Origin: Octopus sinensis
Lineage: Eukaryota
Reading direction: 5' to 3'
NCBI RefSeq assembly: GCF_006345805.1
Contig: NC_043000.1
Coordinates: 125,178,001 to 125,242,000, forward strand
Length of the DNA: 64,000 bases
How positions within the stretch are numbered: the first letter of the stretch is position 1; each line of letters opens with the position of its first letter. The notes below the pieces were generated by a model that saw only the letters and a program-made list of their open reading frames with translations, had not been told where the DNA came from and made no database searches. The translations under genes and the position numbers were made by a program. Of this stretch, positions 9,006 through 58,590 are shown piece after piece.

Positions 9006-9238
9006 AAAGTGAAAAGGATACAGTGAACTTGCTGTGAGGAGTGGAACATCCGTTTCAGATTCAATCCTTCGTCAGGGGTTAGAGAAAAAGAGAAGTAAGC
9101 CAAACCGAGTTTACATCTTCTCAGCTTGAAACTCTTTTTGACTTTCTTCTCTTTTTCTCTACCCCTTGGTGAAGGACTGAATCCGAAATGTTGGATGTTC
9201 CACTCTGCACAGCAAGTTCGCTGTACCCTTTTCACATT
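9006..9238. mobile_element. Foldback element between TA tracts with minimal hammerhead-like motif in both arms
   Basis: Arms 9006-9095 and 9145-9238 are reverse complements; left arm minus strand reads cccCTGACGAaggattgaatctGAAAcgg, right arm cccttggtgaaggactgaatccGAAAtgttgg. Confidence 0.65.
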
Positions 9239-9306
<68 letters not shown>

Positions 9307-9439
9307 GGCATTATACATACATGCCAGAAGGCATTATACATACATGCCAAACGCTAAGAGGGACAATCAGTCATTTCTACCAAAAATATTACTAATCCTA
9401 CCGAATGCAATTTTTCAAAGTAAGACATTTAAAAATATA

Positions 9440-9485
9440 GACCTGTATCACAGTGATTTCATACTTACGTAATCATCAGCAGGCC
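9440..9485 (-). ncRNA. Type I hammerhead ribozyme motif
   Basis: Minus strand: GGCCTG CTGATGA t tac-gtaa-gta t GAAA tcac t gtga TA CAGGTC. Confidence 0.7.
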
Positions 9486-9839
9486 TGAATGTATTATAAA
9501 TAAACAACGACCCTGCCCCGCTTAAGCCGATCAGCTAACTGATCAACATCAACGAAGCACATGGGTGAGTTTACATATATTACATCCGGGTAAATGGCAA
9601 ACTTTTACGAATTGCATTTCGGGAGAGGAAAAGTTTTTTCGGAATAAAAATTTAGCAATTAAGGACAACTACTTAATAAGGAAAACTTAACAAGAAATTG
9701 TCAGGTAGATAGCGTAAAAACCTCATAAGAGAAAAAATTTCGAAAATAATTATTTCTTATTGAACATATTAATTTATATATAGAGGGCATTATACATACA
9801 TGCCAGAAGGCATATCGTTGTTTATTTATAATACATTCA

Positions 9840-9885
9840 GGCCTGCTGATGATTACGTAAGTATGAAATCACTCTGATACAGGTC
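9840..9885 (+). ncRNA. Type I hammerhead ribozyme motif (one stem III mismatch)
   Basis: ggcctg CTGATGA ttacgtaagtat GAAA tcactctga TA caggtc. Confidence 0.65.
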
Positions 9886-10318
9886 TATATTTTTAAATGT
9901 CTTACTTTGAAAAATTGCATTCGGTAGGATTAGTAATATTTTTGGTAGAAATGACTGATTGTCCCTCTTAGCGTTTGGCATGTATGTATAATGCCTTCTG
10001 GCATGTATGTATAATGCCCTCTATATATAAATTAATATGTTCAATAAGAAATAATTATTTTCGAAATTTTTTCTCTTATGAGGTTTTTACGCTACCTACC
10101 TGACAATTTCTTGTTAAGTTTTCCTTAATAAGTAGTTGTCCTTAATTGCTAAATTTTTATTCCGAAAAAACTTTTCCTCTCCCGAAATGCAATTCGTAAA
10201 AGTTTGCCATTTACCCGGATGTAATATATGTAAACTCACCCATGTGCTTCGTTGATGTTGATCAGTTAGCTGATCGGCTTAAGCGGGGCAGGGTCGTTGT
10301 TTATTTATAATACATTCA

Positions 10319-10364
10319 GGCCTGCTGATGATTACGTAAGTATGAAATCACTGTGATACAGGTC
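10319..10364 (+). ncRNA. Type I hammerhead ribozyme motif
   Basis: ggcctg CTGATGA ttacgtaagtat GAAA tcac t gtga TA caggtc; 6-bp stem I, palindromic stem III. Confidence 0.7.
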
Positions 10365-10655
10365 TATATTTTTAAATGTCTTACTTTGAAAAATTGCATT
10401 CGGTAGGATTAGTAATATTTTTGGTAGAAATGACTGATTGTCCCTCTTAGCGTTTGGCATGTATGTATAATGCCTTCTGGCATGTATGTATAATGCCCTC
10501 TATATATAAATTAATATGTTCAATAAGAAATAATTATTTTCGAAATTTTTTCTCTTATGAGGTTTTTACGCTATCTACCTGACAATTTCTTGTTAAGTTT
10601 TCCTTATTAAGTAGTTGTCCTTAATTGCTAAATATATATATATATATATATATAT

Positions 10656-10736
<81 letters not shown>

Positions 10737-11217
10737 CAGATAGATACTTCCAAACAAACATGATTTTTAAGGAAATCCTAATATTTTTAATGAACTTTTA
10801 AATATTTTCTCAAGACTTTTCCTTGTAAACTGTTTTTAACATTTTCTTATTTTTATCAAAGAATGTATATATGTATTTTAAAGAATGTATATATGTATTT
10901 TAATACTTTTGTGACAACCAGTACTTAACACAACAAAGCTTTACATTTTACTTTTGACAATCTTTTTCTAAAAAAGTGAAACCAGTCAAGTGAATAAGCA
11001 TCTTTAAAATTGCATTTTGAAACCTTCTTTCATATATATATCTATATATATATATCTATATATATATATATCTATATATATATATATATATACACACACA
11101 TATATACATATATTCCCACATGATTGGGAAGCAAGTGTGAAACTGTACTCAAACCTTATCATTGCAAAACAAACTTCCCAACCACACAGCAATGCATACA
11201 TCCATGCAGAAATCAGT

Positions 11218-40781: not shown

Positions 40782-41777
40782 TAATATTTTGAATACGCCT
40801 TGAACGGTCCTTTTACATACTGAACACTACTTGGTGAAATTAATTAATAACTAATTGATTTTACCCTTAATTATTGATAATTTATATATATATATATATA
40901 AAGGAAATGAAGAAAATGCTGACAAAATAATTTAAGGGAGAGTGTATTTAATTAGGTGAAAGTTCTTTTTACCGGTTGTGCATTTGTTATGCTTATCAAA
41001 AGATATTTTGAGTGAGATAGAGTTCCTTTCTGATTGATTTTTTTCTCTTATCTGACTTTATGTTGGGTTTGCTGTCTCTTATATGTGAAAAAAGAGGCTC
41101 CAGAGTTGTTTAAGATTTGCTTGGTTTCGCGCCTAAAATTTCTTGTGGACAATGGTCAATACAATTTTGATTGGTCATTATAAAGGGGTCATGTGAATGT
41201 TTGAATGGAAGTTGGTGTTGGGGTAAGAAAATAGGCTCCAGAGATGTTAAAATTTGGCTAGTATCTCACCTAAAATTTCTTATTGGTCATAATAAAGAGG
41301 TCACGTGAATGTGGTCATAATAGAGAGGTCACATGAATGTTTAGAATGAATGTTGGTGTGGGTGGTGTATGGAGTTTTCGAAAATAGTGTTGTTGAAAAT
41401 TCTTATTGTTCAGGCTGGTCAGTAGACGTCATGTGGATATTTTGAATAGCTTTTTAGTGCGTAGTTAAGGAGTGTATTTTCCACTTGACTGAATTTGAGC
41501 TGGAAAAGTAAGTTCGTTCAGGACAGGAAGCGCTATATGTATGTATGTGTGCGCGCGCGTGTGTGTGTGTGTGTGTGTGTGTGTGTTTATATGTATGTTG
41601 GGGCGCGCGTGCGTGTATATATGTGTGCGTGTGTGGGTACAATTTTCAATATTTATAACACTCTCCCTTACTTAAATTATTTTGTCAGCATTTTCTTCAT
41701 TTCCTTTTTTTATATATCACAACTCGTGTTCCACATCTCTTTTTTTCAATATCATATCCCCGCACGAGATACAGAAA

Positions 41778-43073
41778 ATGCCTACAAAAACAGAAACCAC
41801 CCTAATCAACTTAAACGAAGAAATCCTACAGGAACTCAAAAACATCAACACCAACCTCTCTGTACTAGTCAACAAATTGGACTCCACTAATGAGGAAACC
41901 ATTACCGGACACAAACCCTCCGAAATCGGCGATAAGCTACAAACTCTGTGTGATACAATCCACACCTTTTTCACCACCACCAACCCAGCCAAAAACAAAG
42001 AAGAACCATGTCAAATTGATTCATACAAACTGAAAAATCGTATAATCCCAGAATGGAACAAATCCCTCAGAGACAGAAAGTTCTCCTTCTGGAAAATGAT
42101 TAGAAACAACAACAAGGCCGAGATATACGAAAAATGGATGAACTCTACCCCTCTAACTCTTCCCCGCAAAATACAATTAAAAGCCATTCCCAATGAACCT
42201 GAACCTCAAAGACGACTTAGGGAAAGAATGGCATTAGAGAGACTGAAAACAGAGATTGAACTTCTCAAATTAAGGGCCCAAACAAATGAGGAAAGAGTCA
42301 AAACAATCGATGAAGAGATCCTCCTCATAATAAATAACAGGGCCGAAAGACTCCACATAGAGAAGATCTCCAATTTATGGAAAGATGACTGCAACAAAGA
42401 GGAACTAAAATCCCTACAACGCTGGGAAAAAAGTGCCACCTGGTTCCTAAACTATGAATCGACTTTCAAAACGGATTACTCTTCCAATAACCCGTTCATA
42501 AAAATGGGAAAACCAGGAACCCAACCACACAACTACTCCGCCAACCCTCCAACCTCGAACAAAAGAAGGAAACAGCATATTGAAGATGTACCTTCTTACC
42601 CCACGTCCATAAGGAGGAACAAGAACCCTGGAAACCCTCACCACCAGAATTACATTAACGAATTTCCCCCTTCAAGGAGACACTATACACAACAACTCAA
42701 CAACTACTCGAATACCTTATTAACAAATAAAAGAGGATTCCACTACCAGGATAGACACAACAACATCCACACCACGAGGGGACAACAAGGTAATTTTCAC
42801 TTTCTCAACTCTCACAATACACAACAAGCCCATACCACTCGATACAAGCACCCACGTAGGTCACTCATATCACCACAATCCAACATGACACAAAGAAACA
42901 CACACCAACACCCGCAATACAGGAACACCCCATTCTATCCACAACCACGAACCCGAACCATATTTCACAACAAGGAATATAACAAACACACAGGACCTCT
43001 TATCACCAACAGACAACCCCTCTACCCCAACCATTTTTTAGACACAGCACACAGATACAGGCAAACAAAATAA
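41778..43073 (+). CDS. PLE ORF1, 431 aa; putative coiled-coil N-half and N/Q/H/R/P-rich disordered C-half
   Basis: Uninterrupted ORF from ATG 41778; heptad-like LINLNEEILQELKNINTNLSVLVNKL and RERMALERLKTEIELLKLRAQTNEERVKTIDEEI. Confidence 0.75.
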   Translation: MPTKTETTLINLNEEILQELKNINTNLSVLVNKLDSTNEETITGHKPSEIGDKLQTLCDTIHTFFTTTNPAKNKEEPCQIDSYKLKNRIIPEWNKSLRDRKFSFWKMIRNNNKAEIYEKWMNSTPLTLPRKIQLKAIPNEPEPQRRLRERMALERLKTEIELLKLRAQTNEERVKTIDEEILLIINNRAERLHIEKISNLWKDDCNKEELKSLQRWEKSATWFLNYESTFKTDYSSNNPFIKMGKPGTQPHNYSANPPTSNKRRKQHIEDVPSYPTSIRRNKNPGNPHHQNYINEFPPSRRHYTQQLNNYSNTLLTNKRGFHYQDRHNNIHTTRGQQGNFHFLNSHNTQQAHTTRYKHPRRSLISPQSNMTQRNTHQHPQYRNTPFYPQPRTRTIFHNKEYNKHTGPLITNRQPLYPNHFLDTAHRYRQTK

Positions 43074-45318
43074 CACAGGACAGGGAAGAGAAACAGAAAC
43101 TAATTAAAGTCATCAATTTAACCAATACAGAACCCAACCCCAACCTTCTCAACTTACTCTCCAAAGGTCTTAAATTCACCCCCCCCCCACGTCCAAACTA
43201 CTACGAAATGAAGGAAGACATTACAGAATTTTGTAGAAAATTACGACTTAGTGAGGAACTATTCGACCAGCACAATGAGGATGAGTCACTAGCTAGAAAT
43301 AAAAGCAACTGCACCCCACCAAAAGGTAGAAATAAAATCCTAGACGAATTCTGTGAGCACATTACAAACTTCCCCTACCAACACTTACACAAACCAAAAC
43401 CCAAACCAAACCTCAACAAGAAAGAGTGGGAAGAATTAAACAAATTAAAAAATGAAAGATCTATCACCATTAAAGAGGCCGATAAAGGAAGTGCAGTAGT
43501 CTTAATGGAGACAGAATACTATATCAACTTAGCACTCTCCACCTTGGAAAATGGAACATATCACGAAAAGGCTGAACACTACAATCAACAGAAAATTATG
43601 AGAAACTTAAAAACCTTGATCAACCCCCACAAAGAAGAACTCACTAACAAAGAATTCAACTTCATCACAAATTTCACTAGTAAAAAAGCGAATTAATAAG
43701 TAAGGCATGCAAGGAAGCCACAAACTCTGTAATAAATGCCCCCTCACCAAATGACCTCAAATTGAGACCTATAATAGCAGGTCCCGCTTGCAAAACCCAC
43801 CGCCTTAGCAACTTCATTGATACCCTTCTCAAGCCCTTCCTCAAACACATTAAAAGCTACATAAGGGACGATCTAGATATGCTCAACCACCTCCCCAATA
43901 CACTTCTTGCTGAACAAACCCTGCTAGTAACATTCGATGTAGTTAATCTTTACTCCAACATCCCCCACAACCTAGGAATAGAAGCTATCCAATTCTGGCT
44001 GGATAATTACTCCAACGAACTCCCACACCACATCAAAAAGGAATTTATTTTAGAAGGACTCAAATTCATCTTAGAGAATAATTTCTTCACCTTCAACAAC
44101 AAATTCTACAGACAGAAATCAGGGACGGCAATGGGAACGAAAACAGCTCCCACTTACGCCAACCTAGTCATGGGATACCTGGAAATCACCCTCTAAAATA
44201 ACGTTCTTAACCAATTTGGCACCACTCTCCACACACACATAGAGAAGAACTGGAAGAGATATCTTGATGACTGCTTCATCCTTTGGCCCGAAACCATCGA
44301 GAAGCTTAAAGAATTTCACACCCTTATAAATGGGCTCAACACAAACATTGTTTTCACAATGGAATACAGACCTCAACAAATTCCCTTCCTCGACATCCTC
44401 ATTAAAATTCACAACAAAAAAATAGAAACAGACATATACTACAAGCCCACAGACTCCAAGCAATACCTCCCTTTCAATTCATGCCACCCTAGGCACGTTA
44501 AAATTAACATTCCCTACAACTTAGCCAAGAGAATTTGCACTATAGTCTCCAATAAAAACACCCGTCTCTTACGTCTACAAGAACTTAAGGACACATTAAC
44601 AAGCAGGGATTACCCCACGTCACTAATTGACAATGGGATCCAACGCGCCCTAAAACTCAGCACACAGGAACTTAGACGCCCTAAACCTGTTACATCGAAA
44701 CCCCATACTCTACCATACATCTCTACACACAACCCCCTCAACAATGAAGCTTTTGACACCATCCTCCAGAACATTCCTGTATTAAAAAAGGATCATAGAA
44801 TGAACCAAATCCTCCTAACACACGAAATCATAAAGAGCAAAAGGCAACCCGAATCATTGAAAACCATCCTAACAAATGCCAAAGTACTGCCAACCACAAC
44901 AACTAAACCCACAGTAAACAAATGCAATAGACCCAACTGTGGTATATGCATCAACCTAATAGAAGGTCCAGAATTCCTTTTTAAACAAGGACGTTTCACA
45001 GTAAAACACAACTTCACATGCGCATCAGAAAACCTAGTATATGTCTTAACTTGCTCGGGCTGTAATGAACACTACATGGGCCAAACTAAAAATAGCCTCC
45101 GCCAACGGATGACTGTCCACAGATCCCAAATAAAAATACAGGAATACAGAAAAATAGCACTTAGTGCACATATTGATACCTGTGCCGCACAACTTCATCC
45201 CAATTTTAGAATCTTTCCCCACTACAAATTTAAAGACAATGCCACTCATACCCAGCGAATAACCATGGAATCCCACCTCATTAATTAATACAGACCACTT
45301 CTAAACACATTCCCCTAA
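43040..45318 (+). pseudogene. PLE reverse transcriptase + GIY-YIG endonuclease, inactivated
   Basis: VINL..LLSKGLKFTP, ITIKEADKGSAVV, LRPIIAG, FDVVNLYSNIP, YRQKSGTAMGT, WKRYLDD (YLDD 44260-44271), IPFLD, YYKPTD, CNRPNCGIC linker, NLVYVLTCSGCNEHYMGQT; lesions: frameshifting deletion near 43685 removing the YGLPKIHK motif, TAA at 44194 and 45286. Confidence 0.93.
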
Positions 45319-46331
45319 CACGAACCCACAACAAACACACTTACACCTGCACACACCCTACACACACTTTTACCCAGATATTAACACCATGACACACGCA
45401 AATATATGGTTCCACACATACACATAATTTGATACGGGTGCAAAACATCCAACACTATTTTTTGGAAATGACTGTAAATATTGACTTCACACAAACACAT
45501 TGCTTCCCGATACAGGCACAAGGCCAGCAGAACTATAAATATTGAAAATTGTACCCAAACACGCACACATATATACATGCGCGCGCGCCCCAACATACAT
45601 ATAAACACACACACATGCGCGCGCGCGCACACACACACACACATACATACATATAGCTTTTCCTGTCCTAAACGAACTTACTTTTCCAGCTCAAATTCAG
45701 TCAAGCGGAAAATACACTCCTTAACTAGGCACTAAAAAGCTATTCAAAATATCCACATGACGTTTACTGACCAGCCTGAACAATAAGAATTTTCAACAAC
45801 GCTATTTTCGAAAACTCCATACACCACCCACATCAACATTCATTCTAAACATTCACGTGACCTCTCTATTATGACCACATTCACGTGACCTCTTTATTAT
45901 GACCAATAAGAAATTTTAGGTGAGATACTAGCCAAATTTTAACATCTCTGGAGCCTATTTTCTTACCCCAACACCAACTTCCATTCAAACATTCACGTGA
46001 CCCCTTTATAATGACCAATCAAAATTGTATTGACCATTGTCCACAAGAAATTTTAGGCGCGAAACCAAGCAAATCTTAAACAACTCTGGAGCCTCTTTTT
46101 TCACATATAAGAGACAGCAAACCCAACATAAAGTCAGATAAGAGAAAAAAATCAATCAGAAAGGAACTCTATCGCACTCAAAATATCTTTTGATAAGCAT
46201 AACAAATGCGCAACCGGTAAAAAGAACTTTCACCTAATTAAATACACTCTCCCTTACTTAAATTATTTTGTCAGCATTTTCTTCATTTCCTTTTTTTATA
46301 TATCACAACTCGTGTTCCACATCTCCTTTTT

Positions 46332-46444
<113 letters not shown>

Positions 46445-56408: not shown

Positions 56409-56723
56409 GCTATATATATATATATATATATATTATAAATTAATTAATAAGGGGGAGAGAGAATTAGATGCTAATTTAATAGTATATCTATTCAACACCA
56501 AGTGGCCTCTAGTGCTCCGAGAAACCTGGATTATTATAATATTATATAATATATTATAATATTTTTACAAAATAAATATAAGAGAGTGGTCACTATATGG
56601 CTCACTCTAGCACCAGTTAATCCAAAAGGTTTCAACCACAAAAATACATGTTTCCCATGAAAGTCAGTACGATTGTTAGCTCACACGGACAGGGCAAATA
56701 AAAAATAACAAAAATACAGATTA

Positions 56724-56805
56724 TTTTGGGACAATTGTTTCGCTATTAATGAATTAAATGTAATTTTACTTACAAAAAAATCCACTTGTAGCTCGTCAGC
56801 CAAAA
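56724..56805 (-). ncRNA. Type I hammerhead ribozyme
   Basis: ttttgg CTGACGA gcta...tagc GAAA caattg TC ccaaaa on the minus strand; copy at 57259-57339 lacks one A of GAAA. Confidence 0.8.
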
Positions 56806-57825
56806 CTATCTGGATGAAATCCACTCAATCACACGCCAGATTTTACCATAAAGATAAATACGCGTGTGGTTCAATTGATTACATCCGACGTTATAATTCA
56901 AATGCCCCAACTAACAGCGCGCCAAACTTTCACGGAAAACAATACAGCATTTAGAAATAAATGCAGCATAATTAATTAATAATAAGGGTGAGAGAATTAG
57001 ATGCTAATTTAATAGTATATCTATTCAACACCAAGTGGCCTAGTGCTCCGAGAAACCTGGATTATTATATATTATATAATATAATATATTATAATATTTT
57101 TACAAAATAAATATAAGAGAGTGGTCACTATATGGCTCACTCTAGCACCAGTTAATCCAAAAGGTTTCAACCACAAAAATACATGTTTCCCATGAAAGTC
57201 AGTACGATTGTTAGCTCACACGGACAGGGCAAAAAAAAAATAACAAAAATACAGATTATTTTGGGACAATTGTTCGCTATTAATGAATTAAATGTAATTT
57301 TACTTACAAAAAAATCCACTTGTAGCTCGTCAGCCAAAACTATCTGGATGAAATCCACTCAATCACACGCCAGATTTTACCATAACGATAAATACGCGTG
57401 TGTTCAATTGATTACATCCGACGTTATAATTCAAATGCCCCAACTAACAGCGCGCCCAACTTTCACGGAAAACAAATACAGCATTTAGAAATAAATGCAG
57501 CATAATTATAATTAATTAATAAGGGTGAGAGAATTAGATGCTAATTTATAGTATATCTATTCAACACCAAGTGGCCTAATGCTCCGAGAAACCTGGATTA
57601 TTATTAATATTATAATATATTATAATATTTTTACAAAATAAATATAAGAGAGTGGTCACTATATGGCTCACTCTAGCACCAGTTAATCCAAAAGGTTTCA
57701 ACCACAAAAATACATGTTTCCATGAAAGTCAGTACGATTGTTAGCTCACACGGACAGGGCAAATAAAAAATCAAAAACAAAAATACAGATTATTTTGGGA
57801 CAATTGTTTCACTATTAATGAATAG

Positions 57826-57907
57826 TTTTGGCTGACGAGCTACAAGTGGATTTTTTTGTAAGTAAAATTACATTTAATTCATTAATAGCGAAACAATTGT
57901 CCCAAAA
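57826..57907 (+). ncRNA. Type I hammerhead ribozyme, canonical core, GUC site
   Basis: Stem I ttttgg/ccaaaa, CTGACGA 57832-57838, stem II gcta/tagc, GAAAC-aatt-GTC; predicted cut after 57901. Confidence 0.85.
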
Positions 57908-58358
57908 ATCTGTATTTTTGTTATTTTTTATTTGCCCTGTCCGTGTGAGCTAACAATCGTACTGACTTTCATGGGAAACATGTATTTTTGTGGTTGAAAC
58001 CTTTTGGATTAACTGGTGCTAGAGTGAGCCATATAGTGACCACTCTCTTATATTTATTTTGTAAAAATATTATAATATATTATATAATATTATAATAATC
58101 CAGGTTTCTCGGAGCACTAGGCCACTTGGTGTTGAATAGATATACTATTAAATTAGCATCTAATTCTCTCACCCTTATTAATTAATTATAATTATGCTGC
58201 ATTTATTTCTAAATGCTGTATTTGTTTTCCGTGAAAGTTTGGCGCGCTGTTAGTTGGGGCATTTGAATTATAACGTCGGATGTAATCAATTGAACCACAC
58301 GCGTATTTATCGTTATGGTAAAATCTGGCATGTGATTGAGTGGATTTCATCCAGATAG

Positions 58359-58439
58359 TTTTGGCTGACGAGCTACAAGTGGATTTTTTTGTAAGTAAAA
58401 TTACATTTAATTCATAATAGCGAAACAATTGTCCCAAAA
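58359..58439 (+). ncRNA. Type I hammerhead ribozyme, canonical core, GUC site
   Basis: Same motif; predicted cut after 58433. Confidence 0.85.
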
Positions 58440-58590
58440 TAATCTGTATTTTTGTTATTTTTTATTTGCCCTGTCCGTGTGAGCTAACAATCGTACTGAC
58501 TTTCATGGGAAACATGTATTTTTGTGGTTAACCTTTTGGATTAACTGGTGCTAGAGTGAGCCATATAGTGACCACTCTCTATATTTTATT

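Follow-up and report, generated by a model that had tools for sequence, protein, structure and literature searches.

Fixed, complementary ends in two-armed insertions of a 479-nt hammerhead retrozyme from Octopus sinensis

The window analyzed here, a stretch of 64,000 nucleotides from Octopus sinensis, contains a hammerhead-bearing repeat inserted as two oppositely oriented arms whose outer ends are fixed and complementary. This pair of ends, overlooked in the first-pass annotation, is the footprint of Penelope-type integration. We judge it likely that the insertion belongs to a young, protein-free retrozyme and was primed twice on one RNA, probably a circle, by a borrowed Penelope-type RT-endonuclease. 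Neither the element nor its ribozyme is of a new kind, and the U·U apposition in the ribozyme had been described before. The added value lies in insertions that can be counted and that thereby document how tandem and inverted copies are built by Penelope-type enzymes.

The 479-nt element and its family

The whole element occupies 9304-10633, with (TA)33 on its left and (TA)n(TAGA)n on its right, and is organized as follows.

9239..9303, no strand: left (TA)n target tract (TRF period 2, 33 copies)
9304..9813, minus: arm A, 3' end at site A into the TA tract, 5' end at unit position 112
9440..9485, minus: type I hammerhead fold, intact, predicted cut 3' of A17 at 9446
9813..9815, no strand: head-to-head arm junction, unit position 112 to 415, with one untemplated base at 9814
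9815..10633, plus: arm B of 1.7 units, running from unit position 415 (5' end) to site B, where its 3' end meets TA
9840..9885, plus: hammerhead fold whose helix III palindrome is broken by a private G>C at 9874; cut predicted after 9879
9880..10358, plus: 479-nt monomer, predicted cut site to cut site, 33% GC
9976..10022, plus: internal 23-nt duplication immediately before site A
10011..10155, plus: read-through copy of the A-to-B segment inside the arm (anchors 128 nt apart)
10319..10364, plus: type I hammerhead fold, intact, predicted cut after 10358
10632..10746, no strand: right target tract, (TA)n then (TAGA)n

Ribozyme strands had been described as pointing outward from a central inversion with TA flanks, and this is the arrangement found, with a minus arm (9304-9813), a plus arm (9815-10633) and TA on both sides. 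The 479-bp period reported for the array is likewise the repeat period of the element. The bases at 9296-9303 can be assigned either to arm A or to the TA tract. Both element ends merge into TA tracts, where a target-site duplication would be masked, and no LTR layout is seen in the element or in the loci examined. Protein coding is absent from the element, which is low in GC (33%) and lacks an RT plus GIY-YIG open reading frame. A coding remnant in the unit was considered and rejected, since the longest open frame is 55 amino acids.

The annotation also saw no likeness between this unit and the 534-nt unit at 56-58 kb. Local alignment bears this out (z=-0.1, with 105 of 200 shuffles scoring equally high), and kinship of the two is rejected. 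As read from its sequence, the 534-nt hammerhead family (56420-58590) has two different outer ends that lie about 135 nt apart in the unit, and one of its four hammerheads is missing an A of GAAA.

The genome is 2.7 Gb in size and rich in microsatellites. The 32-nt hammerhead motif is not a chance pattern in it, because there are 1,291 exact copies and none of the reversed control. A 22-nt pattern outside the ribozyme has 1,722 genomic matches. With 39 of 1,093 candidates scored, at least 132 matches at 94-100% identity are found, spread over many contigs. These counts mark the 479-nt repeat as both young and abundant.

Description of the repeat as an independent family holds relative to the family at 56-58 kb. 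The unit nonetheless forms part of a broad clan made up of sister subfamilies. Older sisters account for 373 pattern matches, and their flanks are 62-90% identical to the unit. A more distant relative of 478-479 nt (L071-L090) is an older and more abundant hammerhead family with 4,987 candidates. Its helix III has the same geometry but different palindrome letters, and its distant likeness to the unit outside the ribozyme is not equaled in any of 300 shuffles.

Insertion ends and their pairing

Examination of 84 loci reveals how these insertions end. The sample consists of the 37 best matches, 27 clusters on contig C1 taken in position order (three more were already within the first set), and 20 of the 22 C1 clusters that carry the flank pattern without the exact motif, two being left out. 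Counts omit the second copies of local duplicates L107 and L162. Each arm holds from 1 to 13 units. The 3' ends, relative to the ribozyme strand, fall at two sites, A and B, which are 128 nt apart and each run into TA. The 5' ends, 106 in all, are scattered across the unit.

Two-armed insertions are present at 56 of the 84 loci, and all are arranged minus-then-plus with 3' ends outward. When ends are typed by anchors, 50 of these loci pair A with B, none has A/A or B/B, and six have one untyped end; coarser end typing gives 51 of 56 as A+B. Either site can be on the left (A in 26 and B in 24 of the 50). Single-armed copies (n = 28) end at A in 21 cases and at B in 5, with 2 untyped. The same rule is seen when two-armed loci of sister subfamilies are read by eye, where A pairs with B in eight of eight. 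At most junctions the arms overlap by 0-5 nt (mode 2) or are separated by a few additional bases.

These ends are difficult to reconcile with a satellite that spreads by recombination plus local inversions, which is the least credible of the explanations weighed here. Such a repeat would have nearly identical tandem units, as is the case, but the units are dispersed on many contigs, their outer 3' ends are fixed where their 5' ends vary, and each insertion has a single inversion, always with the same polarity. The satellite reading is refuted by the A/B end rule.

The segment between A and B contains sequence blocks that are conserved among sister subfamilies, and is a candidate protein-binding and priming signal. 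A conserved structure for this segment is unsupported (1 of 24 predicted pairs covaries), and the 14 nt shared by site B and L069 are, on a rough estimate, a chance match. At L019:2018-2075, the 5' end of an A arm meets, in head-to-head orientation, the final ~50 nt of another repeat family. This other family likewise ends in TA, as seen in L035 and L060, and the locus is a possible two-template insertion.

Across 39 loci of the first two sets, both arms carry the subfamily-diagnostic variant at 175 sites, compared with 4 sites where only one arm does. Shuffled arm pairs yield 249 discordant sites on average and never fewer than 165. This distribution argues that both arms derive from one template lineage rather than from two independent insertions.

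Shared haplotypes would also be explained at once if a single cDNA or antisense RNA folds back and self-primes, the endonuclease trims the copy at the other site, and central deletions reshape the arms. Self-priming of this type has been proposed for Penelope inversions (PMC3846280). In 4 of 50 insertions both arms stop at the same unit position, as expected of a hairpin, and some of these stops are at short palindromes. However, fold-back requires that the second arm nest in the first, and 12 of 50 arm-length pairs lie in the band that is thereby forbidden, which is as many as independent arms predict (11.3; 6-16). Arm lengths are also uncorrelated (rho 0.15, p 0.28), and fold-back leaves unexplained why the copy never reaches the site of the first arm. 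Later deletions at the inversion center could shift arm lengths. The fold-back origin of the second arm is thus weakened rather than eliminated, because such deletions could explain some of the lengths and four insertions are hairpin-like; we regard it as improbable. Arms that stop within a few bases of one unit position, in excess of chance, were noted at L145, L150, L162, L176 and L178, with the shared stop at short palindromes in L145 and L150.

Overall, the insertion record favors a model in which a single RNA, probably a circle, is primed twice, at two fixed sites.

Ribozyme folds and the form of the template

Three type I hammerheads are located exactly where they had been placed, at 9440-9485(-), 9840-9885(+) and 10319-10364(+). 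They are the only matches on either strand of the window to a descriptor with a short helix III, intact GAAA, a stem I of at least 5 bp and a stem II insert of at most 45 nt; the longer stem II insert of the motifs at 56-58 kb puts them outside this descriptor. The reported 6-bp stem I (with one G·U), U·U followed by a 3-bp stem II, GUAA loop and AUA site are all present. Core sequences are CUGAUGA and GAA, helix III is AUCAC-U-GUGAU, and A17 is at 9446, 9879 and 10358. An Rfam scan of the window gives no hammerhead among the 150 listed of 295 matches, which are microRNA models driven by microsatellites.

Stem III was described as a palindrome. This is true of the copies at 9440 and 10319, but the copy at 9840 reads UCAC-U-CUGA due to the private G>C at 9874, which weakens the predicted dimer helix from -8.5 to -5.7 kcal/mol. 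The monomer MFE fold mispairs the core, pairing it with helix III, and two unit copies are predicted to co-fold into a dimeric hammerhead. As a circle, the monomer is predicted to be highly self-paired (z=-7.0 versus 60 shuffles). The locus at 9304-10633 would itself be a poor source of monomer, since in its single tandem pair the mutated ribozyme is the upstream one.

The U·U that led stem II to be called non-canonical is indeed there, but it is a minor and known state of a pair that varies among sister subfamilies. Pair 10.1-11.1 is U·U in this unit and A-U or canonical G-C in the sisters. A10.1-U11.1 is found in the third set of loci, the C1 clusters without the exact motif, and some older sister subfamilies carry a long stem II. 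A U·U at the base of helix II has been described in the axolotl ribozyme HHR_Amex2, whose monomer reaches 22% cleavage and whose dimer cleaves more (PMC7229834).

The annotation had proposed covariation across genomic copies as a check on the fold. Among 11 aligned homologues, which are hand-picked and related, 162 of 165 cells are paired, and 7 of 15 pairs change on both sides, including five of the six in stem I. Several of these hammerheads came from a pattern that fixes the core and helix III, such that only stems I and II count in the comparison. The hammerhead fold appears to be under selection, because these pairs are double-changed and 0 of 500 shuffles reach the observed covariation score; slid structures come nowhere near it. 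Helix III and the cut junction are intact in 234 of 248 copies. The center base of helix III varies. Within the young family, 1 of 46 hammerhead columns varies compared to 48 of 433 in the flanks, a comparison that is biased by locus selection and for which the covariation across sisters was therefore substituted.

Copy number, covariation and folding together support the proposed retrozyme family with a 479-nt monomer, the predicted cut sites and the need for a dimer. Self-cleavage of the unit RNA and the existence of RNA circles are predictions from these models. Eight of nine predicted Xenopus retrozyme dimers failed to cleave (bioRxiv 10.64898/2026.07.22.740005).

Of the sequencing runs carrying the 479-nt unit, none is listed as an RNA source, and contigs from runs guessed to be RNA cover it in a form that reveals neither strand nor ends nor circles. 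In runs X2, X6 and X19, the differences from window positions 9150-10800 and 10034-10512 are mostly A>G and T>C (37 of 43 in X2). These changes are clustered in single contigs and include hammerhead adenines; X9 and X15 show no such excess. If these runs are RNA, as guessed, the clusters could reflect A-to-I editing of double-stranded transcripts.

The units within each insertion also speak to the form of the template. Thirteen locus-unique variants are fixed in every covering unit of their locus, and 11 of these are out of register. Where a variant is limited to a single A/B pair, it is out of register in four cases and in register in one. Both arms are longer than 479 nt in 25 of 50 insertions, and L141 and L156 have arms of 10 and 13 units. 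Both the fixed variants and the long arms are what would be expected if one circular monomer were copied repeatedly. Units could also be made alike by gene conversion, assembly polishing or a homogeneous uncut multimer. The 5' ends show no significant enrichment at the cut (positions 1-20 contain 8 of 106, with 4.4 expected, p 0.08), which fits a circle and, equally, an uncut multimer. An excess of 5' ends at positions 401-440 (21 of 106) was dropped as confounded by the choice of loci with an intact motif.

The absence of a 5'-end pile-up is one reason to consider Penelope-type double priming on an uncut linear multimeric transcript, in which the U·U-weakened hammerhead would be slow or dispensable and no circle would form. 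Insertion in vitro by an anole element is independent of ribozyme cleavage (PMC11167929), which also agrees with this arrangement. Nevertheless, we consider it unlikely. The 11 of 13 fixed variants that are out of register call for a step from one unit to many, truncating copies alone cannot sustain arms of the length found at L141 and L156, and the hammerhead stems covary. Template jumping on cut linear monomers would also explain the fixed variants and long arms; against it, 234 of 248 copies preserve a precise junction. Copying of a circular monomer remains the preferred reading.

Proposed Penelope-type machinery and known systems

The proposed pathway begins with transcripts of tandem arrays, in which pairs of hammerheads would swap palindromic helix III strands and cut after AUA. 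A host ligase might then close the 479-nt monomer into a circle. A Penelope protein, probably a dimer, would bind the A-to-B segment and nick both strands of a (TA)n tract. One DNA end would prime at A and the other at B, 128 nt downstream; the footprint of this step is seen in the loci, and its enzymology is conjectural. Site A is probably the default start because single-armed copies end there in 21 of 28 cases. Each enzyme would copy toward the 5' side of the RNA for an independent length, often passing the ribozyme and exceeding one unit, as the arms attest. The two cDNAs would finally be joined head to head via microhomology or a few untemplated bases, which are the features present at the junctions. 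In a more specific version, somewhat less likely than not, a protein dimer would coordinate the double priming: it would bind one small RNA circle and assign the fixed upstream start A to whichever DNA end comes first, leaving the fixed downstream start B for the other, and two RTs would then roll round that circle.

GIY-YIG elements are numerous in the genome, with at least 147 matches among 150 of 5,029 candidates. A young Penelope family encodes a 781-aa RT plus GIY-YIG frame with a CxxPxCxxC motif, and by this motif alone it would be classified as Neptune-like. It ends in (TA)n at two sites 37 nt apart, and its end motif has 640 exact matches. Among the first 100 of these matches, all eight inverted pairs within 5 kb combine a short end with a tailed one; among the first 30, short ends make up 20 of the 21 unpaired terminal ends. 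One pair of ends 15 kb apart was left out of the count and fits the rule too. Thus, this autonomous family obeys the same end rule as the 479-nt retrozyme. Against taking it as the helper, its tail measures 37 nt instead of 128 nt, scans found no canonical hammerhead in it, and its likeness to the unit is weak (2 of 300 shuffles score as high).

No helper carrying the 479-nt unit was found among 40 GIY-YIG loci examined (from 5,029 candidates). Pieces of Penelope protein beside L020 and L177 are not clean chimeras with the unit, and a hammerhead repeat beside the full-length element L062 is a separate non-coding family. It might still be supposed that the units are merely the 3' ends (pLTRs) of truncated autonomous Penelope elements. 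Their architecture, target and tail rule are Penelope-like, and retrozymes derive from pLTRs (bioRxiv 10.64898/2026.07.22.740005). However, the arrays run unit after unit with no reading frame, and Penelope protein pieces are near only 7 of 84 loci, none of them running in sense directly into the unit. This explanation is very improbable, and a borrowed enzyme acting on a protein-free retrozyme is preferred.

Several other elements in the genome are worth recording. Other hammerheads, with a perfectly palindromic helix III, are found at L067:7010-7065 and L069:5155-5240 beside a 775-aa Penelope-like frame, on the opposite strand. The window contains a broken Penelope-like element at 41200-46340 (+) with RT motifs, an inverted front arm, a TA tract at its 3' end and a GIY-YIG match (E 6e-4) that is below the Pfam cut-off. 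Both this element (41676-43696) and the 781-aa family (L061, L062, L064) have a separate upstream frame of about 465-479 aa, which has no Pfam match above cut-off. It overlaps the RT frame in another phase, whereas Penelope elements are described as single-ORF.

In the open-access literature searched, no paper was found that reports the strict pairing rule or the 479-nt family; bioRxiv supplements may list the family. Metazoan non-LTR retrozymes are the closest relatives in composition (PMC7229834; bioRxiv 10.64898/2026.07.22.740005). Like them, the element consists of non-coding, low-GC tandem units with one type I hammerhead each, a dimer-type helix III and a predicted self-paired circle. 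The unit of 479 nt exceeds the 170-400 nt of the retrozymes in PMC7229834 and is within the 51-972 bp of the bioRxiv set. Circles and cleavage were shown for published metazoan retrozymes, whereas here they are predicted from sequence. Penelope elements have been proposed as helpers and ancestors of non-LTR retrozymes, and neither source, in the portions covered, describes two-armed insertions with complementary ends. The pairing rule adds footprint evidence that animal retrozymes ride Penelope machinery, beyond co-occurrence and pLTR likeness.

In the form of its insertions, the element resembles endonuclease-bearing Penelope-like elements (PMC8557442; PMC3846280; PMC11167929). Shared features include partial tandems, an inverted 5'-truncated front copy, microsatellite or AT-rich targets, a 'tail' at one end only, and two internal RT start sites. 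It differs in that the unit has no RT or endonuclease gene and its tail is 128 nt rather than 30-40. In these papers, the tail is called optional and inversions are ascribed to self-priming or left unexplained, whereas strict end pairing and non-nested arms are counted here. How tandem and inverted Penelope insertions arise is treated as an unsettled question in PMC8557442, and PMC3846280 attributes them to self-priming.

A Penelope protein from the anole, which starts at two internal RNA sites, cuts both strands and extends them. In that system ribozyme mutants still insert and no strand preference of the start sites was observed in vitro, two points that count against the proposed pathway (PMC11167929). 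The A+B pairing, single haplotype and non-nested arms provide sharp predictions for that assay, and a 479-nt template is small enough to be made as a circle. Circular templates have been proposed for Penelope (PMC4209133). The minimal pLTR hammerheads (min-HHR) of that report are likewise type I with a palindromic helix III and predicted dimer action. Unlike them, the present ribozyme has a 6-bp helix I, a helix II of four positions, which is the canonical size, and 5-bp palindrome arms. It also has no extra base between 9 and 10.1, and carries U10.1·U11.1 instead of G10.1-C11.1.

If true, coordinated double priming by a protein dimer would explain, in retrozymes and autonomous Penelope elements alike, why there are tails, inverted front copies and tandem arrays. 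It would then take the place of self-priming, and the 128 nt from A to B would serve as a loading signal that is portable.

In L1 twin priming, both target strands prime on one RNA, creating a 5' inversion that is joined by microhomology. As reconstructed here, the present element shares the priming from two strands, the single RNA and the microhomology-joined 5' inversion. It differs from L1 in that the second site is fixed and located 3' of the first, and the first cDNA is not stopped there.
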